A stretch of 64,000 nucleotides of DNA from NCBI GenBank assembly GCA_902798595.1, contig CADBXE010000003.1, positions 10,792 to 74,791 of the forward strand. Reading direction: 5' to 3'. Every line of letters begins with the position of its first letter. Position 1 is the stretch's first letter. Both the position numbers and the translations under genes were made by a program. The DNA comes from an uncultured Erysipelotrichaceae bacterium (GTDB taxonomy: Bacteria > Bacillota_I > Bacilli_A > RFN20 > CAG-826). Below, one piece after another: positions 2,320-27,986 of this stretch. The notes beneath the pieces are model-generated. The model worked only from the letters and a program-made list of their open reading frames with translations, was not told where the DNA came from and did not search any database.

Positions 2320-2330
2320 ATTTGTATTCC

Positions 2331-7326: not shown

Positions 7327-7435
7327 TAAACAAAACATATTATTTGTCATTTTAATAACAATACCTTAACAATAATAGCGATATTTCATATTTATATATT
7401 GATATATAGCGGTGTTTAAGATATTATCAAAATCG

Positions 7436-7464
7436 TTGAAATATTGAGTATAAGGTCATAGTAT
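7436..7464 (+). promoter_or_regulatory. Sigma-70-like promoter for the 7586 surface-protein gene
   Basis: TTGAAA-N17-TAGTAT. This would give a ~115-nt leader before the AGGAGA RBS and the ATG at 7586. Confidence 0.45.
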
Positions 7465-7585
7465 GGTTGACCGTTTCTACATAGCACCGTTACTGCTATA
7501 CTACTCATTCATATTTTGTGAATGTTTATATACTCATATTAATTGTTCAACTCCCTAAGGGTTTTTTCGTGAAAGGAGAAAGCTT

Positions 7586-10117: not shown

Positions 10118-10131
10118 GAGGGAATTAGAAT

Positions 10132-10251
10132 ATGAAGAAAAAACAATTCGAAAAACCAGAAGCAGAATTAATCAAGTTTGAAGATACAGATATTATTGCT
10201 ACATCTGGTCCTAATGACGGAGAAGATCCTGATAAAGAATGGGATTTCTAA
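10132..10251 (+). CDS. Micro-ORF A, 39-aa acidic peptide (candidate RiPP-type precursor)
   Basis: Hand translation: MKKKQFEKPEAELIKFEDTDIIATSGPNDGEDPDKEWDF. AGGAGGG (10116-10122, overlapping the upstream stop) lies 9 nt before the ATG. A strong terminator follows. Paralogous to micro-ORF B. Below the 60-aa cutoff of the ORF track. Confidence 0.5.
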   Translation: MKKKQFEKPEAELIKFEDTDIIATSGPNDGEDPDKEWDF

Positions 10252-10281
10252 TTCCTGAATTATAATTTACCAATAACGATC

Positions 10282-10310
10282 AAAAGGCGGGTTTTCATCC
10301 GCCTTTTTGT
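10282..10310 (+). terminator. Rho-independent terminator after micro-ORF A
   Basis: AAAGGCGG-loop-CCGCCTTT followed by TTTTT. Confidence 0.8.
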
Positions 10311-10394
10311 TTTAACAACTATCTCACTTACTATTTTTTGATTGATTCATCAGCGTTAACAACATATCATTAATTCTTGGAAGTAAACTATAGT

Positions 10395-10535
10395 ATGAAA
10401 ACAAATTCAGAAAATAGAAAAACATTTATAAAACCAGAATTAGAAATCATCTTATTTGAAGGTGAATTAGCTACTGGTGATCTTATTATCAATTCAAGTT
10501 TTGGTAATCCAGACGGTGATGATGGGGATATCTAA
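10395..10535 (+). CDS. Micro-ORF B, 46-aa acidic peptide (paralogue of micro-ORF A)
   Basis: Hand translation: MKTNSENRKTFIKPELEIILFEGELATGDLIINSSFGNPDGDDGDI. Possible TTGATT-N17-TATCAT promoter (10342-10370) and a weak GGAAG RBS. Has its own terminator. Confidence 0.45.
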   Translation: MKTNSENRKTFIKPELEIILFEGELATGDLIINSSFGNPDGDDGDI

Positions 10536-10550
10536 TAATAGATAAATCCA

Positions 10551-10576
10551 GGTGGGGCAAGCGCTCCACCTTTTTA
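10551..10576 (+). terminator. Rho-independent terminator after micro-ORF B
   Basis: GGTGGGGC-AAGC-GCTCCACC stem followed by TTTTT. Confidence 0.8.
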
Positions 10577-10588
10577 TATGATGTGCAC

Positions 10589-10616
10589 TTGCAAAAATAT
10601 AAATATAAACTATATT
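10589..10616 (+). promoter_or_regulatory. Putative promoter for the 10642 nuclease gene
   Basis: TTGCAA-N16-TATATT, about 25 nt upstream of the ATG. Confidence 0.4.
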
Positions 10617-10641
10617 ATTAATTGTTCCCACTTAGTGATAT

Positions 10642-13071
10642 ATGAAAATGAATACAAGAAAACAATTAATTAAAATAGGCGCTTTAGCAGCGGCTTTCTC
10701 TTTAACTGCTGGTGTATTTATCAATTTAGGTAGAAAAGCCTTTGAGGTCAACGCATACAGCATTGGTAATTTAGCAAAGGAAATTGATCTAAATGATTGC
10801 ACAGAACAAGAGATAAGAGATTATTATTCTAACCTTAATTCTTTAGATACATCAGAAAGACAAGGTACAAACCTTCTCATACAACTAAAAGATATCTTAT
10901 CAACTAACCAAGTGTATTTTAGTTATGACAGTGGCGATAAGATTTGGCAAATGTATGAAATAACTGACCGTGATTGGGAGAAGTCTCCTGCTAGTTCGAC
11001 TGTTTATGGTACATATGACCCTGTTACCAATACTATTTCTAATTACCAATATGGTGAAAGTAAAAGCAACAGTAAGAACAACCCATATATCCACGCTTTA
11101 TATATCAATAGGGACATTGACAATCAAACAACTGCGTGGGATGACCACAATCAAGATGCTTGGGGCATAAACCAAGAACATATTTGGGCCAAGTCACATG
11201 GCTTTGATACCAAAGGTAGCGATTCCAGCGGTGGCGCTAGAGGTGACCCAATGCACTTATGGGCAGGAAACGGCTGGGCCAACAATGTTCATAGCAACAA
11301 TTTCTTTGGCTTTGTTGACATAGATAGGGAATACACCGATTCAGGTACTAAATACCAAACCGCTTATGGTAATTTGTCTGGTTTTTCAAGAACTGTAGGT
11401 GGCAACGAAACCGTTTTTGAACCACAAGATTGTGATAAAGGCGATATTGCTAGAGCCATATTCTATATGGTTGCTAGATATAATAACTATGAAAACAAAA
11501 CCGAAGGTATTGATGGCAATAATCCAAACCTTATTTTGTTAAATGATTTATCAGAAAACACTAGAACTGGTACATCCGCTTTTGATGACCCATATGGTAT
11601 GGGCTTATTAAGCGATTTATTAGCCTGGAATAAGCTTGATCCAGTTGATGAATACGAAGTACATAGAAACAATCTTCTTTATAAAAACTACACAAAGAAT
11701 AGAAACCCATTCATAGATTTCCCTAATTGGGCTGACGCTATTTGGGGAACAGCGGATATAGATGGTACAAACTATAGTTCTACTGTAGTTGGCTACGCAT
11801 CTCCAACCACCGATCCAATTGGTTCTGTTACTGGTCCTTTAGATATCTCTAACGAAACAATGGAAATCATTGTTGGTGATACAGCGGAAATTTCCGCTAA
11901 AAATGCTTTAGATGTCATTACTTGGACAGTAGAAAACGACTCAATCGTGAGTTTAAATAAAACAACTTCCATTAACAAAGAAAAGCTTACTATTACCGCT
12001 TTAAGCACTGGTACAACAACTATTACCGCCACTTGCAATGGCGTTGATGTTTCTTGCACAGTGACTGTTAGAGAACCAACAGCAAAAGAAGCGATTGAAA
12101 GAACAGATACCGTTACCTCTTTAGCGTATCGCTATACAAGAGAAGAAGGTAAAGCCCAAACTACAGATACTTTAGATAAGACCTTTACTGAAGTAAGTGG
12201 TTCTTCATATGCCGAATGGACAAATAGTGGTGCATCTGATGTTACTTACAAAGGGACAACTGCTGGAAGCAACAACTCAATTACGCTTAAATCAACTGAT
12301 CACTCTGGCATTGTTACTACTGCTAACCTTAATGGTGCGAATGCACTCAACGTTACAGTGACATGGGAATCACACACCGCCGATGGCCGTACAATTGATA
12401 TTTATGGTAAAAACACCGCTTATACTGAGCCAGGAGATTTATACGCTAATGCTACAAGAGGTACAAAACTTGGATCTATTGTTTATGGCGAAAGCACAAG
12501 TCTAGCTATTACTAGCGACTATAAATACATTGGTATCAGAGCCAACAGCAATACATTGTATGCTTCTTCTATCGAAATAGGATGGAGTGCTACTCCTCCA
12601 AAATTCTCCTATTCTGATGCGTCTATTAGATTTACTGGCTTACTTAGCCAACAACTATGGAATGATTTAGATACTGAAAACTATGTTATTGAAGGCTTTG
12701 GTGTCATGATTGCCACTGATGATGTGATTAATGAAACCGCTAATATTAAAGATTCCTATGAATCCGCTATTTTATCTACGTTAAATCCTGATGTCACTGA
12801 AAATATAGTGGATTACTTTGTTTCAAAAGATACTAAGGCCACACCAACCATAAAAGGTGATGACTATTACTGGAATCTAAAATACAACATTGCCGAAGAA
12901 AACTATGCAACAACGTATGTTGCTGTAGCATATATTAAGACATCAACAAGCTATGTCTTCTTTAAACAAACAAGATATAGCGTTAAGTCATTAGCGGAAG
13001 ATTACATTGCTAATAGGGGCTATGATTCAGCAACCGCTAATGGTTCATTAGCAAACTTAGCAAATATCTAA
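10642..13071 (+). CDS. Membrane-anchored extracellular endonuclease-I family protein (paralogue 2)
   Basis: 809-aa ORF with an N-terminal TM anchor. Endonuclease-I motifs NQEHIWAKSHG, DPMHLWAGN, FEPQDCDKGDIARAIFYM and NRNPFIDFPNWA. A Big_2-like Ig domain precedes the shared C-terminal module (..WESHTADGRTIDIYGKNTAY..ANGSLANLANI). Confidence 0.85.
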   Translation: MKMNTRKQLIKIGALAAAFSLTAGVFINLGRKAFEVNAYSIGNLAKEIDLNDCTEQEIRDYYSNLNSLDTSERQGTNLLIQLKDILSTNQVYFSYDSGDKIWQMYEITDRDWEKSPASSTVYGTYDPVTNTISNYQYGESKSNSKNNPYIHALYINRDIDNQTTAWDDHNQDAWGINQEHIWAKSHGFDTKGSDSSGGARGDPMHLWAGNGWANNVHSNNFFGFVDIDREYTDSGTKYQTAYGNLSGFSRTVGGNETVFEPQDCDKGDIARAIFYMVARYNNYENKTEGIDGNNPNLILLNDLSENTRTGTSAFDDPYGMGLLSDLLAWNKLDPVDEYEVHRNNLLYKNYTKNRNPFIDFPNWADAIWGTADIDGTNYSSTVVGYASPTTDPIGSVTGPLDISNETMEIIVGDTAEISAKNALDVITWTVENDSIVSLNKTTSINKEKLTITALSTGTTTITATCNGVDVSCTVTVREPTAKEAIERTDTVTSLAYRYTREEGKAQTTDTLDKTFTEVSGSSYAEWTNSGASDVTYKGTTAGSNNSITLKSTDHSGIVTTANLNGANALNVTVTWESHTADGRTIDIYGKNTAYTEPGDLYANATRGTKLGSIVYGESTSLAITSDYKYIGIRANSNTLYASSIEIGWSATPPKFSYSDASIRFTGLLSQQLWNDLDTENYVIEGFGVMIATDDVINETANIKDSYESAILSTLNPDVTENIVDYFVSKDTKATPTIKGDDYYWNLKYNIAEENYATTYVAVAYIKTSTSYVFFKQTRYSVKSLAEDYIANRGYDSATANGSLANLANI

Positions 13072-13149
13072 AACATAGTTTTGTTTACATTTTTAATATT
13101 GATTATTATGAGTAAACCTCATATCATTTAATGCTAAGGTAAAAAACCT

Positions 13150-15708
13150 ATGAGAATAAAAAAACATATCCCAACAATAATTGCTTTAACCGCTGTTTTA
13201 ACTTTAGGCGCCAGTTTATACGTTAATTTTAAAAAAGCTCCTGTTGAAGCTGATGCCACTCAAGTAAATGAGAATTTTGCCCCATATACTTATAGTGGTA
13301 CTTATTACAGCGATCACAATATTGATTTTAATGCTGGCGATGGCATGAATGGTGCACTTAGAACAAAACTAAGAACCGAACTTAAACCAAAAGGTTTTGT
13401 AGAGTATAGCAGTGGATTATCAGACGAACTACAAGAAGCTGACGAAGATCCAAATAATACAGATAACATGGTGATGTTCTACACCCGTAACTCAATCACA
13501 AAAACTCCCGCTAGCAATGGTGGCATGGTTTGGAATAGAGAACACGTCTGGCCAAAGAATAAATCAAATGACAACTGGGGTACAACCAAAGGTGGTACAG
13601 ACATTCTTCACCTTAGACCAACATATGAGACACCAAACTCAACAAGAAGCAATCACCCATATGGTTATGCTCATAATGGCACAAAAAAGTCACACCTTAA
13701 CATGGATTATGGCTGGTTAGATGGCGATATCTTTGAACCTTTGGATTGCGTTAAAGGTGATGCCGCAAGAATCATTATGTATGTTTGGACAGTCTATGAT
13801 GGTTATTCGGGATATAATCCTTTATCAATCACTAGTGTTTTTGAAAGTTTTGACACTCTTCTTGAATGGCACACAATGGACAAGCCAGATGCCTTAGAAG
13901 GCCATAGAAATGATTATGTGCAAAACAGCACAGTACAAAAGAATAGAAATCCATTTGTTGATCATCCTGAATTAGCATGGAAGATTTTTGGTGATGCAAA
14001 TGGATTAAGCGCATCTGTTAAGAACGCCTGTATGGCAGCTTATCCAGATGGCAGTAATCCAATAGATCCAACCGGTATTACATTAAACAAAACAACTGCT
14101 TCTGTGGAAGTAGGAAAAACAACACAATTAACCGCTACATTGGAGCCATATGGTGCCTCAGGCAACATCACTTGGTCATCAAGCAATACTACTGTTGCCA
14201 CTGTTAATAACAATGGCTTAGTTACTGGTAAAGCAGTAGGTGAGTCCACAATTACTGCAACATGTGGTACCTTTAGTGCTTCTTGTGTAGTTACAGTCGC
14301 AGAAACTGTAAATATCTATGGCACATTAGAAAACCCATTAACAGTGTCTGAGGCTAGACAATTGATTGACGATGTTAACGGTGGCTACACAGCTGAAAAA
14401 ATGTACGTAAAAGGTACAGTGTCTTCTGGCTCGTACAATTCACAATATAGCAACTTTAATGATCTTTGGTTGCAAAGCGAAGATGGTGAAACCGCTAATT
14501 ATTTTGATTTATATCATGCTGAGTTAGATGACTCTGTTCCTGCTAAATACACTAATCCAACTGAATTAGAAGGCAAAGAAGTTATAGCCTATGGCTACGG
14601 CAAGAAATATAACTCTACTTATGAACTTGCTCCTCAAAACAATAACGTTAATAAGCCAGTTATTCTTTCGGTAAAAGATCCTAATCCAATTGAAAAGACC
14701 GCAAAAGAATTAATCGAAGAAGAAACTACTTCTGCAACATTAGCGTATCGGTACACTAAAGAAGGGAATGGTAGTAGTTCAGTTACTGATGCATTAACAA
14801 GAGATGTTACTGGAGTTGAGAGCGGTTCCACATCATATATAGATTGGACACATACTAATTCAACAAGCGCTATTACATACAAAGGACAAAGTGCTGGTAA
14901 CTACGATTCTATTCAAATCAGAAGTGATAAAAGTAATTCTGGTGTCGTTGTTTCTGCTAATACGAACTCTTCAAAAGTAAGTTCTGTTACAGTTGCCTGG
15001 AACACTAATACTTCCAATGGCCGCACATTGAACGTATACGGAAAGAATACCGCATATACTTCACCAACTGATTTATATGGTAATAATCAAGGTACTTTGC
15101 TTGGTACTATCGTTAAAGGTACTAGCACAAGTCTAGCCATTACTGGTGATTATCAATATATTGGACTCAGATCAAATTCTGGTGCAATGTATCTGGAAGA
15201 AATCGATATTCAATGGGGTGGTGCTAGCGCCGCTGTATTTGAATACTCTGATGTTTCGATTAGATTCACTGGCTCACTTAGCCAAGACTTATGGAATGAT
15301 TTAGATACCGAAAACCATGTTATTGAAGGTTTTGGTGTCATGATTACAGCAGTGTCTTCTTACGTAAATGGCACTAGTAAAATTAAAGAACAATATCAAT
15401 CAGCGGTTATTTCAACCGATAATCCAGATGTCACTGAAGACATAGTGAATTACTTTGTGCCTAAAGAAACTAAGGCAACACCTACCGCAAAGGGTAATGA
15501 TTATTATTGGAACTTGAAATACAACATCTCTGAAACTGACTTTAAGACAATCTATGTTGCCGCAGCGTATATTAAAACCGCCACTGAATATGTCTTCTTC
15601 AATCAAGCAAGATATTCTGTAAAAACACTAGCAGCGGATTATATCAATGAAAGAGACTATAATCCAACAACCGCTAATGGTTCATTAGCAAACTTAGCAA
15701 ATCTATAA
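13150..15708 (+). CDS. Membrane-anchored extracellular endonuclease-I family protein (paralogue 3)
   Basis: 852-aa ORF with a TM anchor. Motifs NREHVWPKN, DILHLRPT, FEPLDCVKGDAARIIMYV and NRNPFVDHPELA. Contains a Big_2-like domain (ITLNKTTASVEVGKTTQLTA..) and the shared C-terminal module ending ANGSLANLANL. Confidence 0.85.
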   Translation: MRIKKHIPTIIALTAVLTLGASLYVNFKKAPVEADATQVNENFAPYTYSGTYYSDHNIDFNAGDGMNGALRTKLRTELKPKGFVEYSSGLSDELQEADEDPNNTDNMVMFYTRNSITKTPASNGGMVWNREHVWPKNKSNDNWGTTKGGTDILHLRPTYETPNSTRSNHPYGYAHNGTKKSHLNMDYGWLDGDIFEPLDCVKGDAARIIMYVWTVYDGYSGYNPLSITSVFESFDTLLEWHTMDKPDALEGHRNDYVQNSTVQKNRNPFVDHPELAWKIFGDANGLSASVKNACMAAYPDGSNPIDPTGITLNKTTASVEVGKTTQLTATLEPYGASGNITWSSSNTTVATVNNNGLVTGKAVGESTITATCGTFSASCVVTVAETVNIYGTLENPLTVSEARQLIDDVNGGYTAEKMYVKGTVSSGSYNSQYSNFNDLWLQSEDGETANYFDLYHAELDDSVPAKYTNPTELEGKEVIAYGYGKKYNSTYELAPQNNNVNKPVILSVKDPNPIEKTAKELIEEETTSATLAYRYTKEGNGSSSVTDALTRDVTGVESGSTSYIDWTHTNSTSAITYKGQSAGNYDSIQIRSDKSNSGVVVSANTNSSKVSSVTVAWNTNTSNGRTLNVYGKNTAYTSPTDLYGNNQGTLLGTIVKGTSTSLAITGDYQYIGLRSNSGAMYLEEIDIQWGGASAAVFEYSDVSIRFTGSLSQDLWNDLDTENHVIEGFGVMITAVSSYVNGTSKIKEQYQSAVISTDNPDVTEDIVNYFVPKETKATPTAKGNDYYWNLKYNISETDFKTIYVAAAYIKTATEYVFFNQARYSVKTLAADYINERDYNPTTANGSLANLANL

Positions 15709-15747: not shown

Positions 15748-15786
15748 AAAAACTCCGCCTATTAGTTAATAGAAGGAGTTTTTTTG
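15748..15786 (+). terminator. Rho-independent terminator
   Basis: AAAAACTCC...GGAGTTTTT stem followed by a T-run. Confidence 0.75.
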
Positions 15787-15827: not shown

Positions 15828-17708
15828 ATGATTAAAACAAGAAAAATGAAGACTTATTATCTAAAAATTAGAGAGAAATTTATAGAGCCGCTTAGGAACG
15901 GCATAAAGAAACATGAGTATCGTTTAGCTTCTCCAGAAAGACGCTCTATTAAGATTGGAGACAATCTTGTTTTGATATCAAACCAGGATAAGAAAAACTA
16001 TGTAAGAACAACCGTAACGGGAATTAATATTTATAAATCGTGGCGGGAGGCATTAGAAAACTATTGGGAAGAAGATTTCTCTGGGCTTTTTGATACTCTT
16101 GATATTGCTCTTACTGAATGCAATAAATTCTATTCTCGAGATGATGTTGATGAATACGGGATTATTGTATTTGATGTAAAGCCTGCGACCATCGATTACG
16201 GCAGCGCTTCTGTTCTACTGGATACAAACGTCATCGTTAGAAGAGAAAGTTACAACAACAGTTCTTCCGAAATAGCTAAATTATTTAATTACTTCAATAA
16301 AAAGAAAATCAGGACATTTGTTCATCAGAAAAGCAAAAACGAATTGGAAAAATACGCAAATCCAAATTACAAGAAATCTATCATAGATAAGTTAAATGCA
16401 TACGAAACCTTCCCAAACTATGTAGTTCGTCTTGATAATACTTTCAACGATATTGTTTCTCACTTTTCAAATGATGATAATAGTCAAGTTGATAATGCCC
16501 TTTTAGCGGAAGTATATTGTGGGAACGTGCAACTACTTTTGACGGATGACCGTCTAATGCTTTTAAAAGCAGAACAATTGTATATTAGAGAAAAAGTATT
16601 ATCTTCTATTGAACTTCTTGAAAAATACAAGGAACTCGATCCTAAAAATGTAAAGTATGACATTTTGAATGTTACACTCAAATCTTTTGCAGAAGTTGAC
16701 TTAGACGATTCATTTTTTGATACCTTGAAATATGATTACAACTTCGGTAATAACGAATTTGTTAATTGGTATAAGAGAAAGTCTGAAAAAAATGAAATGG
16801 CATACACTTTTTATGATGGCGACATCCTTAAAGGATTCTTATATTTAAAAGTTGAGGACAACGAAACGTATGACGACATTACTCCTAAGATGCCTAGGAG
16901 AAAAAGATTGAAGGTCGGAACGTTTAAAATCAATAGCACTGGCTTCAGACTTGGTGAACGCTTTTTCAAAATTATTTTTGATAACGCTCTTCTTCTAAAA
17001 GTCGATGAAATCTATGTGACACTTTTTGAAAACAAACGCAAAGAAATTGCAAAACTTAAATCTGATTTCGAAAAGTGGGGCTTTACCAAATTTGGATATA
17101 AAACAAATGGCGAAGCTGTTCTGGTGAAAGAAATAGCAAATCCTGTAATTGGTGATAATCCAAAACAATATTTTCCTGCTTTTAAGCCATCTGCTAAAAA
17201 ACTGTTTTTGCCGATTTTGCCTGAATACCATACAAGCCTATTTCCAGATAGCCATTTGAGAAATGAAAATTTAAGTTTCTTAAAAAGCAATCGAGCTCAT
17301 CAATATGCTTTGGAAAAGATATATCTGACAGGAGCAAACACAGATGGCATAAAACCAGGTGATGTTGTACTTATTTATCGCATTGGTGAAGATATGTTTA
17401 AAAGGTATTCCTCCACTCTCACCGGAGCTGCAATTGTTCAAGAGATTATTAAAACTAAGAATGTTGATGAATGCATAGATATATGTAGCAATCGTTCTAT
17501 CTTCAGTGAAAAAGAGATTAGAACGTTTTATGATAAATATCCAACAGTAGTTAAATTGTTATATAGAACTTCATTTGATCATAAAATTCTTCTAGATTAT
17601 TTATGGCAAAAGGGCATAATCGAACAAAACTGTGGCCCAAGATCATTTCAGCCTTTAAGCAACGACTATTTCAGTTTATTATATAAAAAAGGAACTGGAG
17701 AAGAGTGA
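15828..17708 (+). CDS. Multidomain ASCH - PIN - GNAT-like - ASCH-like protein
   Basis: 626-aa ORF. aa ~8-118 are ASCH-like (IEPLRNGIKKHEYRL..GDNLVL). aa ~128-255 are PIN-like (VLLDTNVIV ... LLLTDDRLM). aa ~280-436 are GNAT-like (..LKVGTFKINSTGFRLGERFFK..WGF). aa ~455-615 form a second ASCH/PUA-like region resembling the downstream 125-aa protein. Domain calls come from motif reading only. Confidence 0.55.
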   Translation: MIKTRKMKTYYLKIREKFIEPLRNGIKKHEYRLASPERRSIKIGDNLVLISNQDKKNYVRTTVTGINIYKSWREALENYWEEDFSGLFDTLDIALTECNKFYSRDDVDEYGIIVFDVKPATIDYGSASVLLDTNVIVRRESYNNSSSEIAKLFNYFNKKKIRTFVHQKSKNELEKYANPNYKKSIIDKLNAYETFPNYVVRLDNTFNDIVSHFSNDDNSQVDNALLAEVYCGNVQLLLTDDRLMLLKAEQLYIREKVLSSIELLEKYKELDPKNVKYDILNVTLKSFAEVDLDDSFFDTLKYDYNFGNNEFVNWYKRKSEKNEMAYTFYDGDILKGFLYLKVEDNETYDDITPKMPRRKRLKVGTFKINSTGFRLGERFFKIIFDNALLLKVDEIYVTLFENKRKEIAKLKSDFEKWGFTKFGYKTNGEAVLVKEIANPVIGDNPKQYFPAFKPSAKKLFLPILPEYHTSLFPDSHLRNENLSFLKSNRAHQYALEKIYLTGANTDGIKPGDVVLIYRIGEDMFKRYSSTLTGAAIVQEIIKTKNVDECIDICSNRSIFSEKEIRTFYDKYPTVVKLLYRTSFDHKILLDYLWQKGIIEQNCGPRSFQPLSNDYFSLLYKKGTGEE

Positions 17709-17709
17709 G

Positions 17710-18087
17710 ATGAAACGAAAAATATTGATTTCGGTTAATCCTGAGCATGTTGAAAACATTATTTCTGGCATAAAGAAGTATGAATATCGTCGCCATGTTG
17801 CCAAAAAGGATATTTCATCTATCATCATCTACGAAACAACACCGATTAAGCGTGTAGTCGCGGAAGCGGAAATCGAAGCCATTCTTTCTTATACCCCCGA
17901 TGAACTTTGGGAAATAACAAAGAATGAATCGGGTATTACAAGAGCTTTCTTTGATAAATATTTCAAAGGCAAAGAAATTGCACATGCTTACCGTATTGGC
18001 AAAGTTAAAGTCTTTAAAGAAAAGAAACTGCTTCAAGACTTTGGCGTTAGATGTGCACCTCAATCATTCGTCTACATCAATTACTAA
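17710..18087 (+). CDS. ASCH domain protein
   Basis: 125-aa ORF starting 1 nt after the upstream TGA. ISVNPEHVENIISGIKKYEYRR ... YETTPIKRVVAEAEI is typical of small ASCH (PUA-like) proteins. Confidence 0.7.
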   Translation: MKRKILISVNPEHVENIISGIKKYEYRRHVAKKDISSIIIYETTPIKRVVAEAEIEAILSYTPDELWEITKNESGITRAFFDKYFKGKEIAHAYRIGKVKVFKEKKLLQDFGVRCAPQSFVYINY

Positions 18088-18107
18088 TTAAAATATAAAG
18101 TAACAAA

Positions 18108-18131
18108 GGTGGAGTTTTACTCCACTTTTTA
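18108..18131 (+). terminator. Rho-independent terminator
   Basis: GGTGGAG-TTTTA-CTCCAC followed by TTTTT. Confidence 0.75.
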
Positions 18132-18145
18132 TATATAATAAGCAC

Positions 18146-18865
18146 ATGGTTAACTTTAAAATTGAAATCGCTAATACAGTATTTGAAATTAATGCTTTTA
18201 ATGAGTCCACTAAAAGGTATTGTGGGGATTTTTTAAGCGATAAAGAATCTGATTATGTTATTGATATGACTAAGGATGATTTAGAAAACGAAAAGCATAT
18301 CAGTGAAGATGGTAAAGTGTACGCGAATGAAGAGATATCAGCATTATATCGTAAGATAGCCAATATCTTTATAGAAAAGGATATTATGATCGCTCACGGT
18401 TCTTCTTTTAAAGTTGATAACTGTGGTTTTCTAGTGACTGCGAGAAGTGGAGTGGGTAAATCCACCCATGTTAATTTATTAAGAGAGTTATTAGGTAATG
18501 AATTTAGTTATATTAATGACGATAAGCCGTTATTAGAAGTTAATGATAATAACTGTATGCTTTATTCTTCACCATGGAATGGTAAAGAAAGAAGAGGTAA
18601 TAATACCTATGCTCCTTTAAAGGCTATTATCTTCCTTAATAGGGGTACTTCTAATACATATAGAAAGATTGAAAATAATAGTGATATCTATTTTAGATTA
18701 ATGACTCAAGTCTATTTACCATTAGATAAATCTAAAAGAGAAAAAGCTTTAACATTGATTGATATATTATTAAAGAGAATTAACTTCTATGAGATTAATG
18801 TTAATACTGATATATCAAGTGCGGTTATGACTTATGAAAGGATTATTAAAAATGAAATTAAATGA
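18146..18865 (+). CDS. HPr-kinase-like (HprK-related) P-loop kinase
   Basis: 239-aa ORF. HGSSFKVDNCGFLVTARSGVGKSTH resembles the HprK/P C-terminal domain Walker-A region. No RBS; TATAAT lies 6 nt upstream of the ATG. Confidence 0.55.
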   Translation: MVNFKIEIANTVFEINAFNESTKRYCGDFLSDKESDYVIDMTKDDLENEKHISEDGKVYANEEISALYRKIANIFIEKDIMIAHGSSFKVDNCGFLVTARSGVGKSTHVNLLRELLGNEFSYINDDKPLLEVNDNNCMLYSSPWNGKERRGNNTYAPLKAIIFLNRGTSNTYRKIENNSDIYFRLMTQVYLPLDKSKREKALTLIDILLKRINFYEINVNTDISSAVMTYERIIKNEIK

Positions 18866-19124
18866 AAACTTTTTAATCCATAGTTCTGATAATGGTGAAA
18901 TCTTAATCCCAGTGGGAGAAGAAACTAAAAAGTTCCATGGTGTGGTTAAACTTAATAACACCGGTAGTGAAATCGTTCACTTATTAGAAAATAACGATAT
19001 GTCATTAGAGGATCTCTTTGAACACTTCTATAAGAGCTGTCCTAATGATGATAAAGAAGTAATTAAACAAGGAGTTAGTGAGTTTATTAAAAAACTCTAT
19101 GAAATCAATGCCATCGTTGAATAA
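18834..19124 (+). CDS. PqqD-family peptide chaperone (RiPP recognition element)
   Basis: 90-96 aa (ATG at 18834 or 18852, both overlapping the kinase gene). ..LNNTGSEIVHLLENNDMSLEDLFEHFYK...VSEFIKKLYEINAI follows the PqqD/RRE pattern. Confidence 0.6.
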   Translation: MKGLLKMKLNENFLIHSSDNGEILIPVGEETKKFHGVVKLNNTGSEIVHLLENNDMSLEDLFEHFYKSCPNDDKEVIKQGVSEFIKKLYEINAIVE

Positions 19125-19539
19125 GTTTGAAGACGTTCTTAATAAAGAAGGAGAACTAATATTCACTAATGTTGGTTACTCTATGTATCCGCTCATCAAA
19201 CAAAGAGAGGATGTTTTAAGAATTGTTAAAAGCGATAACTATAAGAAAGGCGATATTGTTTTATATAAGTCTGAAATAGACCACTACGTGTTACATAGAA
19301 TCTTAAAGATTAAGAAAGATGTAGTTATCCTTGCGGGTGACTATAACTACTTTAAAGACAAACCTATTACAAAAGATAAGATTTTAGGCGTTTTAAGCAC
19401 AATTACTAAGAAAGATGGTAAAATAATCGACCTATCTAAGGATAAAAGGGCTAGAAGGTTCTTTTATACGAATTTCTTTTATATCAAAGCATTCTTCCAA
19501 ATGGTTGGGAAGGTATTACATTTAAGAAAAGTAAAATAA
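19078..19539 (+). CDS. S24/S26-family (signal-peptidase-I-like) serine peptidase
   Basis: ~145-153 aa. The likely ATG is at 19099 or 19108, overlapping the PqqD stop. Contains GYSMYPLI (GxSMxP catalytic Ser motif) and KGDIVLY..HRI. Confidence 0.55.
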   Translation: MSLLKNSMKSMPSLNKFEDVLNKEGELIFTNVGYSMYPLIKQREDVLRIVKSDNYKKGDIVLYKSEIDHYVLHRILKIKKDVVILAGDYNYFKDKPITKDKILGVLSTITKKDGKIIDLSKDKRARRFFYTNFFYIKAFFQMVGKVLHLRKVK

Positions 19540-19611
19540 TACTTCATCGGCAAAAAACAAAAAACTTTGTATAACTATTGTAAATCTTGCCGAATATAGT
19601 ATCATTAATGT

Positions 19612-20514
19612 ATGAATAAATTCATAACGGTCAAAGAAGCGGCAAATAAATGGAATGTTTCGGAAAGAAGCGTTCGTAATTACTGTGTCTTAGGAAGAGT
19701 TCCTGATGCAGTTTTTGAAAATGGATGCTGGCTCATACCAGAAACCGCTAAAAAGCCAATTAGGCTTAACGAAAAAGAAAACAAAAACCATCTTCTTGAG
19801 AGATTAAGGGAAGAAAAGAAGCACCAAATCAGTGGTGGAATATATCACAAACTTCAAATCGATTTAACTTATAACTCAAATCATATTGAAGGTAGCGAAT
19901 TAACGCACGATCAAACTAGATATATTTTCGAAACAAGAACCATTGGCTTAGAAAGCACAAATACATCAGTTAAAGTTGATGATGTGATTGAAACCATCAA
20001 TCACTTTTCTGCAATTGATAGAGTTATTGATTTTGCTAACTATGAACTTAGCGAATCATTTATCAAAGAACTGCATAAAATTTTAAAAACTGGGACATCT
20101 GATTCAAGACTTTCTTGGTTTGCGGTTGGCGAATATAAAAAAAGAGCGAATGAAGTAGGTGGCATAGCTACGACATCTCCTCAACAAGTTAATGATGAAA
20201 TGAAAAAACTCCTCAGCGATTATAATCAAAAGGACAAACATTCTTTTGAAGAAATAGTGGAATTTCATGTTAAATTTGAGAGAATCCATCCTTTCCAAGA
20301 TGGCAATGGTAGAGTTGGACGCCTCATTATTCTTAAAGAGTGTTTAAAAAACAACATCGTCCCTTTTGTTATTCTTGATAATAAAAAAATGTTTTACTAT
20401 CGCGGTCTCAAGAATTGGAACCAAGAACGCGGATGGTTATTAGATACTTGCTTGGATGGGCAAAATACAGTAAAAGCGTACCTAGATTATTTTGGAATAG
20501 TGTATCGTAATTAA
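19612..20514 (+). CDS. Fic-family protein with N-terminal HTH
   Basis: 300-aa ORF. An excisionase/MerR-like HTH (ITVKEAANKWNVSERSVRNYC) is followed by the canonical Fic motif HPFQDGNGRVGR. Confidence 0.9.
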   Translation: MNKFITVKEAANKWNVSERSVRNYCVLGRVPDAVFENGCWLIPETAKKPIRLNEKENKNHLLERLREEKKHQISGGIYHKLQIDLTYNSNHIEGSELTHDQTRYIFETRTIGLESTNTSVKVDDVIETINHFSAIDRVIDFANYELSESFIKELHKILKTGTSDSRLSWFAVGEYKKRANEVGGIATTSPQQVNDEMKKLLSDYNQKDKHSFEEIVEFHVKFERIHPFQDGNGRVGRLIILKECLKNNIVPFVILDNKKMFYYRGLKNWNQERGWLLDTCLDGQNTVKAYLDYFGIVYRN

Positions 20515-20524
20515 GGAAGCAAAG

Positions 20525-22165
20525 ATGAGAAACAAAGAAACACTAAGTTTTATTAACAAAAACATTAAAGGGAGTAAGAAGAAAGTCTTTATCCTTTCTT
20601 TAATTCAAACCTTATTAGGTGTTTTAACTGTTGGTTTCTCTTTCATGCTGAAGTTTGTTATCAATGCGATTGAAGATAAGAACAATGAATTATTAATTAG
20701 ATACGTCATTATCATTGCCTCAATTGCAGTCTTGCTTATCGCTTTACAAATCTTCTATCGCTTATATTACGAAGTTAGTTATATCGATATTGAAAATAGA
20801 TTAAAAAATAACTTATTTAAAACAATCTTGAATAAAGATTATCAAGATGTTAAAAACACTCATGATGAAGAATGGATCCATAGATTAACAAGTGATACCG
20901 CAGTAGTGGCATCCTCAATCCTATCAATCTTACCTTCATTATGTAGAATGGTTATCCAATTAGTTTTAGCCTTAGCCCTTATTATCTATTTATTCCCAGC
21001 GTTCGGTTTATCTTTATTGCCATTTATCGCTTTAGTAATTCTAATCACTTACTTTATGCGCAAACGTTTAAAAGCGTATCATCATTTAGCCCAAGAAAAA
21101 GATGGTAAAGCTAAAGTGTTCCTTTCCGAATCTCTTCAAGGTTTAGCAATTGTTCATAGCTTTGTTAAAGAAGATGTCTTTTCTAAAAAGAATGAACAAA
21201 ACTTAGAGGAATATAAGAAAGCGAGATTAAAAAGAAATACATTTAATGTCTTATGCTCTATTGGCTTTATAGTGGTCTACTATACTTTCTATATCTTAGC
21301 CATTATCTTCTGTGGACAAAAGATTATTAATGGTGCGATGACCATTGGCTTCTTAAGCGCGATTGTCGCGTTACTTTCACAGTTAACAGGTCCACTTGGA
21401 AATATCACCTCTATCATTCCTAAGTACTATAGTTTATTAGCGAGTGGTGAACGTTTAAGAATGGAAAATAGCGAGGACGTGGATTATTTATCTAAGAGTG
21501 AAATTGATAATTTCTATAACAATGGATTTAAAAAACTATCCATTAATAAGGTTTGTTATTCCTATTTAGATAAATATGGTAATAAGGTCCAAGCCCTTAA
21601 TAACTTCTCGCTTGTTATTAATAAAAACGAAAAGGTTTTAATTAAAGGCCATTCTGGTGGTGGCAAGTCCACTTTATTTAAACTAATACTTTCTTTATTA
21701 ACCCCAGAAAGTGGTGAAATTAAGATTAACGAACAACCACTTAATAAGAAATATGAAAAACTCTTCGCTTATGTCCCTCAAGATAACTTATTAATGGAGG
21801 GCACAATTAAGGAAGTAGTGACACTATTCGATAATGAACCGAATAATGAACTATTTAACAAAGCTTTAGAAATCAGTGATGCCTCTAACTTTGTTAATGC
21901 CTTAGTTAATAAAGAAGAAACATACCTTAATGAAAAAGGTAGTGGTCTTTCCTTAGGGGAAATGGAAAGAATCGCTATTGCTAGAGCCATTTACAGTGGT
22001 TCTCCAATCTTGCTATTAGATGAATGTTCAGCGTCCCTTGATGCCTCTAGTGAAAAGACAGTGATGTCTAATATTTTAAATATGAACAATAAGACCATTA
22101 TCTTAATTTCACATCATAAATATGATGAGAAGTTATTCGATAAGGTTATCGATCTTGGTGAATAA
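20525..22165 (+). CDS. ABC exporter, fused permease/ATPase
   Basis: 546-aa ORF. N-terminal 6-TM exporter domain, Walker A GHSGGGKST, signature LSLGEMERIAIARA, Walker B ILLLDE. Starts 10 nt after the fic stop. Confidence 0.85.
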   Translation: MRNKETLSFINKNIKGSKKKVFILSLIQTLLGVLTVGFSFMLKFVINAIEDKNNELLIRYVIIIASIAVLLIALQIFYRLYYEVSYIDIENRLKNNLFKTILNKDYQDVKNTHDEEWIHRLTSDTAVVASSILSILPSLCRMVIQLVLALALIIYLFPAFGLSLLPFIALVILITYFMRKRLKAYHHLAQEKDGKAKVFLSESLQGLAIVHSFVKEDVFSKKNEQNLEEYKKARLKRNTFNVLCSIGFIVVYYTFYILAIIFCGQKIINGAMTIGFLSAIVALLSQLTGPLGNITSIIPKYYSLLASGERLRMENSEDVDYLSKSEIDNFYNNGFKKLSINKVCYSYLDKYGNKVQALNNFSLVINKNEKVLIKGHSGGGKSTLFKLILSLLTPESGEIKINEQPLNKKYEKLFAYVPQDNLLMEGTIKEVVTLFDNEPNNELFNKALEISDASNFVNALVNKEETYLNEKGSGLSLGEMERIAIARAIYSGSPILLLDECSASLDASSEKTVMSNILNMNNKTIILISHHKYDEKLFDKVIDLGE

Positions 22166-22166
22166 G

Positions 22167-23285
22167 ATGAATAAAGAGAATTACGCGAATAACATTAATA
22201 AGTATGTGCGACTTATCGCAGCGTATCTAAATAATAAGATACTTAACGAAAGTATTGATGATAATCTTCTCTCTTTTTGTATCAAGATGTCCAAACATCA
22301 TTCCTTAACTGCGTTACTTTATAAGGCTATCGTAGAAACGCATAGTAAAGTAAATCCAGAGTTATTAAAGAAGCTAGAGCAGCATTATTACGCTAACTTA
22401 AGAAAGCACGCTTTATTTGAACAAGAAAGAAATGATTTGTTTAAGTATTTAGATGATAACAAGATTGATTATTTACCTTTAAAAGGCTTAATTGTTAAAG
22501 ACTATTATCCTGATCCATTTACTAGAGAATTTGCGGATAACGATATTCTTTTTAAGGGCAAAGATGAAGTGATAAAGAAGTTCTTCGTCGATAAAGACTA
22601 TGAGGTTGAACTATATAAAAAGAGCAATCATGATGTCTATTTAAAGAAGCCCTTCTATAACTTTGAAATGCACCGCGAATTATTCATGGAAAGAGAAGAC
22701 TTAACCGAGTTTGTTAAGTACTTTAAAAACTATTTAGATAAAGCCCCTATTAAAAAGAAGAAAGAACATTATTTAAGCAATGAAGATTTCTATATCTATT
22801 TCACCGCTCATTCATATAAACACTATAGTGCCTCTGGATGTGGAATTAGAACGCTCGTGGATTATTATTTATACTTAAGAAATAACAAACTAGATTTTAA
22901 ATACATCAATAAAGAATTAGAGAAGTTAAATCTCTTAGATTTCTCTAATCAAATGATCAATCTTTCAAATAAAGTATTTAATGAAGAAACATTAGATAAT
23001 GATGAATTAGAAACACTGCTATTTATCGCTAGCAGTGGTACTTATGGTACTTTAGAACACAGTGTCACTAAAGGCATTAAGAAAAAAGGAAAGTTTGGTT
23101 ATACGATGTCTCGCATCTTTCCACCTTATTCCTTCTATAAAACCACTTATCCTTGGGCGTATCACGTTGTCATCCTTATTCCAGTTGCGTGGACAATCCG
23201 CTTATTCAAAGTTTTGTTTACGAACCCTAAAAAAGCGGTGACAGAACTAAAGATGATTAAAGATTCTAAAGAAGAAAAAGAATAG
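22167..23285 (+). CDS. Uncharacterised nucleotidyltransferase family protein (PF14907-like)
   Basis: 372 aa from the ATG at 22167, 1 nt after the ABC stop. YLPLKGLIVKDYYPDPFTREFADNDILF matches the LKG...Y...R..D.D pattern of this family. Confidence 0.5.
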   Translation: MNKENYANNINKYVRLIAAYLNNKILNESIDDNLLSFCIKMSKHHSLTALLYKAIVETHSKVNPELLKKLEQHYYANLRKHALFEQERNDLFKYLDDNKIDYLPLKGLIVKDYYPDPFTREFADNDILFKGKDEVIKKFFVDKDYEVELYKKSNHDVYLKKPFYNFEMHRELFMEREDLTEFVKYFKNYLDKAPIKKKKEHYLSNEDFYIYFTAHSYKHYSASGCGIRTLVDYYLYLRNNKLDFKYINKELEKLNLLDFSNQMINLSNKVFNEETLDNDELETLLFIASSGTYGTLEHSVTKGIKKKGKFGYTMSRIFPPYSFYKTTYPWAYHVVILIPVAWTIRLFKVLFTNPKKAVTELKMIKDSKEEKE

Positions 23286-23300
23286 ATAATAACTATAAAT

Positions 23301-23333
23301 ATTCACCAAATTAATACTTGGTGAATTTTTTTG
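23301..23333 (+). terminator. Rho-independent terminator
   Basis: ATTCACCAA-loop-TTGGTGAAT, a 9-bp stem followed by T7. Confidence 0.8.
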
Positions 23334-23348
23334 TTCTATAATGAAGTC

Positions 23349-25745
23349 ATGATTATTATTAAAGAACTGACTAAGAAATATAACTCTAAATACAAAGATG
23401 AAGAAGTCATCGCTTTAAATAACATTAGCCTTGTGCTTCCTGATAAAGGCTTCATCGCTATTTATGGCGCCTCTGGATGTGGTAAATCAACATTACTTAA
23501 TGTTTTAGGAGGCCTTGATCAAGCAGATGAAGGAGAGATGATTGTTAATGGTCGTAGCACTAAAGGATTTAATGCTTATGATTGGAACTCTTATCGTAAC
23601 CAAGAAGTGGGCTTTGTCTTTCAAAACTACTTTCTCTTACCACATTTGAATGTCGCTGATAATATTGCCGTGACATTACAAATGTCTAAACAAACAGATA
23701 ACCTTAAGGCTAAAATCCGTAAGGCTCTTGATGAGGTGGGCTTAGTAAAGATTGAAAAACGTTATCCAAGACAACTTTCTGGTGGCCAACAACAACGTGT
23801 CGCTATCGCAAGAGCGTTAATCGCTAATCCATCTATCATTCTTGCGGATGAACCAACTGGGGCATTAGATGAAAAGTCTTCTAAACTAGTCATGAAGACA
23901 TTAAAAGAAGTATCTAAAGACCACCTTGTAGTGATGGTTACACATAACGAAAGAATGGCCAAAGAATATGCGGATAGATTAATTGAGATATCCTATGGCA
24001 ATATCACATTCGACTCCAATCCATTAACTATTAAGGGTGAACAAATTACTAAACAAGACCGCTTACCTTCTGTTCACTTACCATTTAGAACATCAATTAA
24101 ATGGTCATTAAGAAACGTTGTTAAAAAGAAAGGCAGATCTATTCCTATCGCTATTGCATCCGGTATTGGTTTAGCCGCAGCGGGTGTTGTTTTATCCATG
24201 ACCAAAGGCATCAATGACTATGTTGGCGTGGCTCAAAAAGCGGCGATTAAAGACTATCCTGTCTATGTGACATGCCACTCCAAAAACTCTAGCCAATCTA
24301 ACGAATTAACATTAACGGAATTCCCAGATTCACCAGATATCATTATTGAAAAGTCTGACTATAAAGCGCAAGAGCATTACATCACTATGCAAGATGACTT
24401 TACCGAATATATGAAAGGCTTAGAAGCGGGTAAAGACTACGCTCACGTGAGCACTAATAAGGCTGTTAACTTTAACTTATTTACCCAATCCACACGTGAC
24501 TCCTATGTCAAAGTGGATTCCACTTCCTATACAACATGCATCTCGCCAACCACAGAAACATATAAGTTCCTTCAAGATGACCAATATGACATCATCGCTG
24601 GTGATCATCTACCACAAAATAAAAATGAACTTACATTAGTCGTGGATACATATAACCGTATTGATTTATACGCTCTTCAAAGAATGGGCTTTGATACATC
24701 AGGTGATAGCATTAAAGCTAGCGATATCATTGATAAAAAAGAATACCGTATCGCTAGTAATGACGATATTTATTATGCAGAAAATAAAGAAGTTAAAACC
24801 GGTAGTGGTACGGTGACTAGAGAAGTCTATAAGACATATGGTACATCCCACTATAAGGACTTATATGATAATGGTGATTTAAGTTTAAGGATTGTTAGTG
24901 TCATTAGACCAAAACAAACAACCACCAATTCTATCTATAGCAACATCCTTTTATATCATCCTGATTTATTAGATTTCTTATTAAATGATGAAACAGGTTT
25001 AAATACCAAATCACATGTTGTAGAAGTACAAAAAGCCAACACCAAATGGGACATCATTACTGGTGAAGACTATGTCTCCACCTTCTATAACGGCTATGAA
25101 TTAACACCACAATATCAATATGAAAGTCGTTTAGTGGAGCTAGGAGGCAAAGATAGAATCACTTCCTACTTCTATTACACCGATACTTTTGCTCAAAGAA
25201 CAAAGATTATTGAATATGCTTCTAAATACAAGGTTGATCCAGAAAGCAATATTATTATTAAGACTAGAGACTATCTAGAAAGTGTGACTGCTTCTTTCTC
25301 ATCATTAGTTAGAACGTTCTCCACAATCTTATTAGCGTTCTCTCTTGTTTCTATCTTGGTGTCAGCGATTATGACCGCTATTTTGACTTATATTTCTGTT
25401 AATGAACGTAAACGCGAGATTGGTTTATTAAGATCATTAGGTGCTAGACAGCAAGATGTCTCATTAATGTTTATTACAGAAGCGTCACTTATTAGCATTG
25501 TCGCAGGCTTCTTAGGTGTTGGTTTGTGTTATGCTGCTGCACCTTTAGTATCTAGAGTGGTGGTTAATATCATTAAGATGGCCGGTACAAGCTTTATCAA
25601 TCCAAAATCTAATCAATTTGCGCAAGTACAGATTTGGTTAATACCAATTCTCTTTGCGGCCGCTATATTAATTGGTATTATTTCCTCGTTAGTACCAGCG
25701 ATAATCGCTGGTCGTAAGAAACCAGCGGAATCATTGAAAGAATAA
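23349..25745 (+). CDS. MacB-type ABC transporter, fused ATPase + FtsX-like permease
   Basis: ~798 aa from the ATG at 23349. [33 protein letters not shown] and DEPTGALD, then a large extracytoplasmic domain and a C-terminal FtsX-type 4-TM region ([15 protein letters not shown]). Confidence 0.85.
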
Positions 25746-27388: not shown

Positions 27389-27677
27389 ATGATTAAAAGC
27401 TTTGCTGATAAAGAAACTGAAAAAAGTATTTAATCAGGAATTCTCTAGGAAACTACCTGAGAATATCCAAAAAGTCGCATTAAGAAAGCTAATGATGATC
27501 AATGCTGCTGAATGTCTAACTGATTTGAAAATTCCCCCAGCGAATCGATTAGAAATGCTGCTCGGAGACCGCTTTGGTCAGTGGAGCATCAGAATCAATG
27601 ATCAGTGGAGAATCGTGCTTATTCCAGTAAGCAACGGAGCGAACTATGAATGTGTAGAGATAGTGGACTATCATTAA
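27389..27677 (+). pseudogene. higB: higB (RelE/ParE-superfamily, plasmid-maintenance-killer type toxin), frameshifted in an A6 run
   Basis: The ATG at 27389 gives MIKSFADKETEKSI* (stop at 27431-27433). The rest of the toxin (VFNQEFSRKLP...PPANRLEMLLGDRFGQWSIRINDQWRIV...VEIVDYH) is in the frame of the 27402 track ORF. Deleting one A from the run at 27420-27425 joins them into a canonical ~95-aa HigB. Confidence 0.7.
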
Positions 27678-27689
27678 GGAGACAGAATT

Positions 27690-27986
27690 ATGAATCGTAT
27701 TGAAACACCAAATATTAGTGAAATTCTTCGTGAAGAATTCATGATTCCTTATCATCTATCAGCATATCGTCTCGCTAAAGAAATCAACGTCCCTATTTCT
27801 CGTATTCAGGATCTGCTTCATGATAGACGTAAGATTACTGCCGAAACATCTATTAAACTGGGCAAGTTTTTTGGCGTAAGTGAAAAATACTTTCTAAACT
27901 TACAAAATGATATTGATATTAGAGAAGCGAAGAAACTCTTTTCTAACAGTGTAAAGAAAATAATGCCTCTTATCAAAAATATATAG
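27690..27986 (+). CDS. higA: HigA-family antitoxin (XRE-type HTH)
   Basis: 98-aa ORF, 12 nt downstream of higB. ILREEFMIPYHLSAYRLAKEINVPISRIQDLLHDRRKITAETSIKLGKFFG is the typical HigA HTH. Confidence 0.85.
   Translation: MNRIETPNISEILREEFMIPYHLSAYRLAKEINVPISRIQDLLHDRRKITAETSIKLGKFFGVSEKYFLNLQNDIDIREAKKLFSNSVKKIMPLIKNI

Follow-up and report, generated by a model that had tools for sequence, protein, structure and literature searches.

Two adjacent genes in a 64,000-nucleotide stretch of DNA from an uncultured Erysipelotrichaceae bacterium (contig CADBXE010000003.1; the whole stretch is called the window below) encode a 626-aa multidomain protein and a 125-aa stand-alone ASCH protein. The pair raises the question of whether it represents a new system and what the two proteins may do together. 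The original prediction, made from the letters of the window alone, had read the unit as a toxin-antitoxin or abortive-infection design and had not recognised it as a described system. This second point had to be given up, as PIN-GNAT-PUA/EVE proteins with an ASCH partner have been predicted since 2013 and are listed in PADLOC as PDC-M11. What sets the window pair apart is an extra N-terminal PH0355-type ASCH domain in front of the PIN domain. With respect to function, we put forward with modest confidence, as the probable reading, a toxin-antitoxin-like defence module of the abortive-infection type, consisting of an RNA-directed effector and an ASCH antagonist.

By profile comparison the window pair was classed as a member of the (PIN)-GNAT-EVE + ASCH family (PDC-M11), because both proteins matched the corresponding models. 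The large protein matched PDC-M11A (PDLC04422) with E = 2.7e-141 over aa 129-623, covering model positions 3-493 of 501, and the partner matched PDC-M11B (PDLC04425) with E = 1.2e-40. The PDC systems of PADLOC are 145 predicted candidates embedded in BREX, DISARM or type I restriction-modification (RM) loci (Payne et al., bioRxiv 10.1101/2024.01.29.577857). The same architecture, a PIN-GNAT-PUA/EVE protein with a second ASCH gene and sometimes with a helix-turn-helix (HTH)-ASCH protein and an AAA_17 ATPase, was reported by Matelska et al. 2017 (PMC5499597), in the PIN_15/PIN_17 groups, and by Bell et al. 2020 (PMC7641849). Its computational description dates back to 2013, according to the citations of Iyer et al. 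2013 in these two papers.

The window pair shares with PDC-M11 the PIN-GNAT-PUA/EVE fusion followed by a separate ASCH gene, and relatives of the pair share the link to type I RM and the AAA_17 and HTH companions. It differs in the additional ASCH domain, which occupies aa 1-125 and lies outside every PDC-M11A model; no mention of such an N-terminal fusion was found in the literature searched on the family. The correct label for the window unit is PDC-M11/(PIN)-GNAT-EVE + ASCH, GevTA-like, and the ASCH-fused four-domain form is a distinct and common variant that the PADLOC models cover from residue 129 only.

The last part of this label refers to a 2025 GenBank record of the lambdoid coliphage PhiR47_2 (PV340567.1; locus L084, 2965-4393), in which homologues of the two proteins are labelled GevT toxin and GevA antitoxin. 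The GNAT-EVE part of the window protein is 37% identical to GevT (E = 1e-52) and the 125-aa partner is 39% identical to GevA over its full length (E = 6e-34). The gene order is the same, and in both cases the genes overlap or are adjacent. GevT, at 357 aa, consists of GNAT-EVE only and, unlike the window protein, is without the PIN and N-terminal ASCH domains. In the immunity region of this prophage, the two genes lie between cI and kil, where lambda carries rexAB. At least eight E. coli phage records contain near-identical copies of the GevT/GevA pair.

Genes and domains of the unit

The two-gene unit was recovered as predicted, with both open reading frames (ORFs) on the same strand (Table 1). 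They meet at the junction GAG TGA g ATG, in which a gap of 1 nt separates the stop codon of the large gene (17706-17708) from the ATG of the partner (17710), and GGAG lies ~10 nt 5' of this ATG. The true start of the large protein may be M7 (15846), because most homologues begin at the equivalent of M7. Terminators had been claimed on both sides of the unit, and both hairpins proved more stable than shuffled sequence. The upstream (15748-15783) and downstream (18105-18129) structures each had a dG of -13 kcal/mol, with z values of -3.4 and -4.8, respectively; for each, 0 of 200 shuffles was equally stable and a U-run followed. A simple consensus terminator scan caught the downstream hairpin and missed the upstream one. 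The GC content is ~33-36% on either side of the pair with no compositional break, and Rfam and tRNA scans gave no match inside the two-gene unit.

To define the domains, the large protein was modelled with AlphaFold2 from an alignment containing 35 homologues (mean pLDDT 85), and domain calls at the family level were taken from a Pfam scan of 79 diverse members. Of the four domains originally claimed, the N-terminal ASCH, the PIN, the GNAT fold and a C-terminal PUA-like domain were all supported, the PIN and GNAT domains by structure searches and by profile searches across the family; the C-terminal domain, however, proved EVE-like and not ASCH. The N-terminal ASCH domain passed the curated Pfam cutoff (ASCH, E = 2.6e-5). 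Its family profile matched Pyrococcus PH0355 and PF0455, with E = 1.6e-12 to PDB 2z0t, and Foldseek gave a TM of 0.87 to the PH0355/PF0455 structures.

For the PIN domain, the window sequence alone gave a weak, sub-threshold Pfam match (PIN_3, E = 0.0086), and PIN_3 was matched by 20 of the 79 members, with a best E of 8.9e-7. A Foldseek search with the whole model returned no PIN chain among its top 50, and a PIN-only AlphaFold model (pLDDT 82) was needed; the solved structures nearest to it were almost all PIN domains, with VapC structures at the top and SMG6, HARP and others besides. The acidic residues D132, E/D172, D222 and D241 were kept in 61-64 of the 65-66 PIN-bearing members, with a VapC-like spacing. 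The motifs that had been quoted for this domain were located at aa 130-137 (LLDTNVIV, including D132) and aa 237-244 (LLTDDRLM).

Pfam matched neither GNAT nor EVE in the window sequence alone. The GNAT fold was indicated by Foldseek matches to PaiA, Naa50, NatD and AtaT (E = 1e-5 to 6e-4), and Acetyltransf_1 was matched by 10 of the 79 members. Residues F297, Y304, F311, W314, K341, K362, Y396, T398 and F419 of this domain are invariant, and E343, G372, G376, E377 and G418 are kept in ~91-99% of members. The C-terminal domain is best classed as an EVE-like member of the PUA superfamily and not as ASCH. Pfam EVE was matched by 17 of the 79 members (best E = 2.1e-5), K497 is invariant, and Y499, D512 and Y517 are nearly so. 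A profile search of the PDB was marginal for this domain, the matches being 2ar1, an EVE-family structure (E = 0.012), and ZmASCH (E = 0.09). A viral fold library gave generic ASCH and GNAT matches only.

The partner matched Pfam ASCH (E = 6.4e-5), and its family profile aligned over the full length with ZmASCH (PDB 5GUS, 5GUQ; E = 4e-20 to 5gus). The window partner itself is 30% identical to this protein (E = 2e-16). ZmASCH, crystallised from Zymomonas mobilis, binds single-stranded DNA and single-stranded RNA and weakly cleaves the latter with Mg2+, and its Y47, K53 and S128 contribute to the nucleic-acid activity (PMC5615036). Y47 and S128 align with the invariant Y41 and S119 of the partner family, and K53 aligns with K47 of the window partner, in a column with K as the family consensus. 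With ZmASCH, the partner family already has one crystallised member that was also studied in vitro. The ZmASCH chain is named helix-turn-helix domain-containing, whereas the window partner is a bare ASCH domain; ZmASCH was studied without operon context, and its RNase activity was weak and observed in vitro. A precedent for an ASCH protein that removes an acyl group from a base is E. coli YqfB, an N4-acylcytidine amidohydrolase (PMC12707154). The ASCH fold and a GxKxxExR-type motif region are common to YqfB and the window proteins, and the YqfB chain was absent from the PDB profile matches of the N-terminal ASCH and of the partner at E values up to 10. NCBIfam was uninformative except for a partial match between the partner and the C-terminal part of the model 'L22/unknown domain fusion' (E = 2.4e-11).

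The partner had further been taken for a paralogue of the C-terminal domain. Only the superfamily was found to be in common, with an hhalign probability of 81% (E = 1.2e-5) and a BLASTP E of 0.023; the hhalign probability to the N-terminal ASCH was 88%, and controls against the GNAT and PIN domains gave ~1%. The three PUA-like modules fall into different subfamilies, the partner being ZmASCH-type, the N-terminal ASCH PH0355-type and the C-terminal domain EVE-like. Because these modules are only remotely related, a recent duplication of either end of the large protein as the origin of the partner was rejected.

Table 1. Positions of the gene pair, its domains and terminators, and of other features in the window
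Feature	Position	Strand	Evidence
Upstream hairpin + U-run; ends upstream nuclease operon, insulates pair	15748-15786	+	RNA fold
Large gene, 626 aa, ASCH-PIN-GNAT-EVE	15828-17708	+	ORF
N-terminal ASCH, aa ~8-120, PH0355-type; GxKxxExR motif (K27, E30, R32)	15849-16187	+	Pfam, PDB 2z0t, Foldseek
PIN, aa ~126-270, VapC-like; tetrad D132, E172, D222, D241	16203-16637	+	PIN_3, conservation, Foldseek
GNAT-like, aa ~285-440; conserved core K341, E343, K362, Y396, T398, G418-F419	16680-17147	+	Foldseek, Acetyltransf_1, conservation
C-terminal EVE-like PUA-superfamily domain, aa ~455-612	17190-17663	+	Pfam EVE, weak PDB profile matches, conservation
Partner, stand-alone ASCH, 125 aa, ZmASCH/GevA-type, putative antagonist/antitoxin	17710-18087	+	ORF, PDC-M11B, Pfam ASCH
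Downstream hairpin + U-run terminator; closes two-gene unit	18105-18131	+	RNA fold, terminator scan
Fic protein with N-terminal HTH	19612-20514	+	PDC-S04 (E = 4.6e-108), SoFic (E = 3e-25)
HigB-like toxin	27402-27677	+	Pfam (E = 5e-17)
HigA-like antitoxin	27690-27986	+	HTH_3
Peptide-modification/export-like run	18146-25745	+	
Purine riboswitch	7426-7523	+	Rfam RF00167 (57 bits, E = 3e-7)
Surface protein gene, then two large secreted Endonuclease_1 genes	7586-15708		
Two radical SAM proteins	1066-3236	-	
CotH kinase-like protein	3453-5132		

Pairing, distribution and neighbours across the family

The family is widespread, occurring in gut and rumen Firmicutes, on proteobacterial plasmids, in lambdoid prophages and in archaea, and in it two classic toxin folds occur together with as many as three modified-base reader domains. 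The homologue search yielded more than 1858 homologues of the large protein, and a HMMER search of 1.84 billion cluster representatives (50% identity) gave 1537 relatives. A scan of species-representative genomes gave 292 relatives; the best 80 of these, from which the taxonomy was taken, came from Bacilli, Clostridia, 'Mollicutes', Cloacimonadota, Coriobacteriaceae, Endomicrobium and the archaeon Methanimicrococcus. Family members were also found on 32 plasmids and in 16 phage records. Three length classes were seen, of ~620 aa (with the N-terminal ASCH), ~500 aa (starting from the PIN domain) and ~350 aa (GNAT-EVE only), so that the GNAT-EVE core is common to all. Gut and rumen Firmicutes commonly carry the ~620-aa form. 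Beside the 500-aa forms, a search for a separate PH0355-type ASCH gene found none. In 82 of 83 loci the large gene is followed directly by the partner gene in the same orientation, the lone exception being at a contig end.

Neighbouring genes were counted in 79 loci, in which only the recurring neighbour clusters were annotated. An XRE HTH gene lies immediately upstream of the large gene in 21 loci, and an HNH_5 endonuclease gene immediately downstream of the partner in 19, including one fusion. Within five genes of the pair, type I RM subunits were present in 16 loci, with the pair embedded among them in L050 and L062; recombinases or integrases were present in 11, and PDC-S01, Dcm, HEPN/RES and AbiTii together in 15. 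A HaeIII restriction endonuclease, a T5orf172 and a YgjP-like gene lie immediately upstream in one locus apiece. In total, recurring defence-type neighbours were found at 30 of the 79 loci.

An AAA_17 gene, encoding a P-loop protein of ~185 aa, was found immediately upstream in nine loci (L060, L064, L065, L071, L072, L074, L075, L081 and L083), all with the 500-aa form, and in several it overlaps the start of the PIN-GNAT-EVE gene (e.g. L064, L065, L071 and L074). It was present at none of the 53 loci with the N-terminal ASCH compared to 9 of the 26 without it. The loci with the N-terminal ASCH often have the XRE HTH gene upstream and the HNH_5 gene downstream, and the window has neither. In L081 (3162-4259), the partner ASCH and HNH_5 are fused in one protein of 365 aa, and a separate HNH_5 gene directly follows the partner in 18 other loci, which argues for a DNA nuclease as a fourth, optional component of the system.

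In alpha-proteobacterial versions the ASCH domain forms a fusion with an XRE HTH, as also reported previously (PMC5499597, PMC7641849). On a plasmid of Azospirillum thermophilum (L085, 3232-6081), overlapping genes encode an HTH-ASCH protein, a PIN-GNAT-EVE protein annotated 'GNAT family N-acetyltransferase' and an AAA ATPase, with ISAs1 transposases nearby. This HTH-ASCH protein is 33% identical to ZmASCH, which places the crystallised ZmASCH in the same operon family.

A patchy occurrence in different phyla, in phages and on plasmids, together with changing and often defence-type neighbours, marks the unit as accessory and not core. This agrees with the accessory setting originally proposed, and the survey of relatives showed no fixed syntenic housekeeping context.

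Conservation differs between the parts of the unit. Among 52 four-domain relatives, the mean identity to the window was highest for the partner (63%), followed by the N-terminal ASCH and the GNAT (56% each), the EVE (48%) and the PIN domain (45%). Compared with the two closest relatives, the nonsynonymous divergence (dN) was 0.014-0.025 for the partner and 0.09-0.41 for the domains of the large protein. The ratio to synonymous divergence (dN/dS) of the partner was ~0.02-0.03 in these comparisons, although saturation of the synonymous sites limits what this ratio can tell. Every part looks functional and under purifying selection, with the partner the most constrained. One of the two closest relatives (L005, 10001-12254) is a mosaic relative to the window, with identities of 84% for the N-terminal ASCH and 95% for the partner (dN 0.09 and 0.025) and of 54-56% for the PIN, GNAT and EVE domains (dN 0.37-0.41). 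This mosaic conservation suggests exchange or recombination at domain boundaries.

Proposed function and alternatives

The toxin-antitoxin or abortive-infection reading of the original prediction agrees with that drawn from comparative genomics (PMC5499597, PMC7641849), with the PDC-M11 listing and with the GevT/GevA labels. We favour it because of the strict pairing and coupling of the two genes, the intact PIN site, the HTH-ASCH fusions, the GevT/GevA labels and the defence-linked distribution. The large protein would be the effector, and its VapC-type PIN domain, with an intact four-acid site, would cut RNA. The GNAT-like and EVE domains, as the presumed ancestral core of the family, would bind and possibly acylate a nucleic-acid substrate, while the EVE and N-terminal ASCH domains would read bases or RNA ends. 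The partner would be co-translated from the same transcript and would restrain the effector, either by binding it directly or by covering the same single-stranded nucleic acid. The toxicity, the roles of the two proteins, the RNA target and the trigger are all features that we infer.

Each of the toxin folds has a known two-gene counterpart. With VapBC, the large protein shares the VapC-like PIN fold and the D/E/D/D tetrad with VapC-like spacing. The pair differs from VapBC in that the PIN makes up one of the four domains of the 626-aa protein, and the partner is encoded downstream and has an ASCH fold, not that of an AbrB, RHH, Phd or HTH antitoxin; no HTH gene that could correspond to a VapBC-type upstream DNA-binding antitoxin was found upstream of the pair in the window. 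With TacT/AtaT/ItaT, GNAT toxins whose substrate is aminoacyl-tRNA, the pair shares the GNAT fold (Foldseek E of 2e-4 to 6e-4 to AtaT) and the two-gene, toxin-antitoxin-like setting. However, PaiA and N-terminal acetyltransferases are structurally closer than AtaT, and the window pair is without an RHH antitoxin.

Several observations weigh against a toxin-antitoxin module. Acetyl-CoA motif A (Q/R-x-x-G-x-G/A) is absent from the GNAT domain in any register, in agreement with Matelska et al. 2017; a loop of the form G372-x-[RK]-x-G376-E377 is present instead, and the GNAT domain without the canonical motif has been argued to be catalytically dead (PMC5499597). While the GNAT fold claimed originally was supported, its designation as a TacT/AtaT-type effector is unproven because of this missing motif. 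In the window, no RM or BREX island surrounds the pair and no HTH or HNH companion gene was found. PDC-M11 is explicitly a computational candidate with predicted activity only (bioRxiv 10.1101/2024.01.29.577857), and the family is without experimental characterisation according to both earlier papers (PMC5499597, PMC7641849). In the literature on PDC-M11, GNAT-EVE and GevT/GevA, no experiment on toxicity, neutralisation or phage protection was found; the names GevT and GevA are annotation only, and no source publication for them was found in the literature searches. Finally, the partner is a well-folded domain and more conserved than the putative toxin, which is unusual for a classical type II antitoxin. 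As the partner is highly conserved and globular, an enzymatic or competitive antagonist fits better than a disordered type II antitoxin, and the same property keeps alive two other explanations, in which the pair would mark bases or the partner would be a sensor.

PMC5499597 and PMC7641849 credit base marking to Iyer et al. 2013; in this proposal, the GNAT domain would acetylate a DNA or RNA base and the EVE and ASCH domains would read the mark, giving an epigenetic-like layer of self/non-self discrimination beside type I RM and not a toxin. The high conservation of the GNAT-like core and the three PUA-like reader domains would suit such a role, as would the recurrence of the family beside or inside type I RM operons (e.g. 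L050 and L062) and the fusion of ASCH to HsdS in Methanohalophilus (PMC7641849). We nevertheless consider it unlikely, given that the canonical acetyl-CoA motif A is absent, that many loci, the window included, have no RM partner and that a system which only marks can hardly accommodate a PIN domain whose RNase-type site is intact; the literature searched links no acetylated DNA base to these loci. Alternatively, the partner may serve not as antitoxin but as sensor or specificity subunit in an obligate complex, one that would detect an invader's modified or single-stranded nucleic acid and bring nucleases to bear on it (the PIN domain and, in many relatives, HNH), in the manner of modification-dependent restriction. 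Type IV restriction enzymes are known to use EVE and ASCH domains as specificity modules (PMC7641849, PMC12707154), the partner is the most conserved component and is homologous to ZmASCH, which binds single-stranded DNA and RNA, and in 19 of the 79 loci an HNH_5 gene comes after it, with a fusion in L081. The window and its closest relatives have no HNH gene, though, VapC-type PIN domains are RNases and not DNases, and the HTH-ASCH fusions and the GevA label favour a regulator or antitoxin; this alternative is also judged improbable.

Elements of marking and of toxin-antitoxin action could be joined in a reversible nucleic-acid acylation system analogous to DarT/DarG, a scheme to which we give a slim chance. 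The EVE and N-terminal ASCH domains would guide the divergent GNAT domain in placing an acyl group on a base of RNA or DNA or on charged tRNA, and the partner would erase this mark as a YqfB-type deacylase or clear it as a ZmASCH-type RNase. During infection, marked RNA would in addition be struck irreversibly by the PIN domain, and in Firmicutes the N-terminal ASCH would do the job of the AAA_17 protein of other lineages. The least probable explanation, and in our view a very unlikely one, is a housekeeping pair for RNA modification or processing, such as tRNA or rRNA acetylation with an ASCH cofactor, that has no part in conflict. In its favour, translation-related RNA modification often involves PUA, ASCH and GNAT domains, the partner is similar to part of the 'L22/unknown domain fusion' model, and purifying selection acts on all parts. 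A housekeeping role is unlikely because the distribution is patchy and mobile, spreading across phyla and including phages and plasmids; moreover, RM, Abi and recombinase genes abound in the neighbourhoods, which differ between loci, and the synteny of the window is kept in two close relatives only. Solving the family could reveal new nucleic-acid sensing or marking in immunity.

Surroundings of the pair in the window

The neighbourhood of the window pair is shared by L004 and L005 only. Two secreted Endonuclease_1 genes precede the pair, and a peptide-export-like cluster follows it. The nearby Fic and HigBA genes that had been noted were both confirmed, at 1.5 kb and 9.3 kb downstream, respectively, and the Fic gene is a second candidate defence gene near the pair. 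It is embedded in the peptide-modification/export-like run, which encodes a 239-aa GVGKST P-loop protein, PqqD, an S24-like peptidase, an ABC exporter, NTP_transf_5 and ABC/FtsX. L004 and L005 share at least the first part of this run (in L004, from the 239-aa gene through the ABC exporter).

On the other side of the pair, the purine riboswitch lies 5' of the gene for the surface protein, which carries Listeria-Bacteroides repeats and is followed by the two Endonuclease_1 genes. From its gene content, this run looks like a purine-regulated system for scavenging extracellular nucleic acid. The radical SAM and CotH kinase-like genes further upstream are apparently unrelated to the pair.

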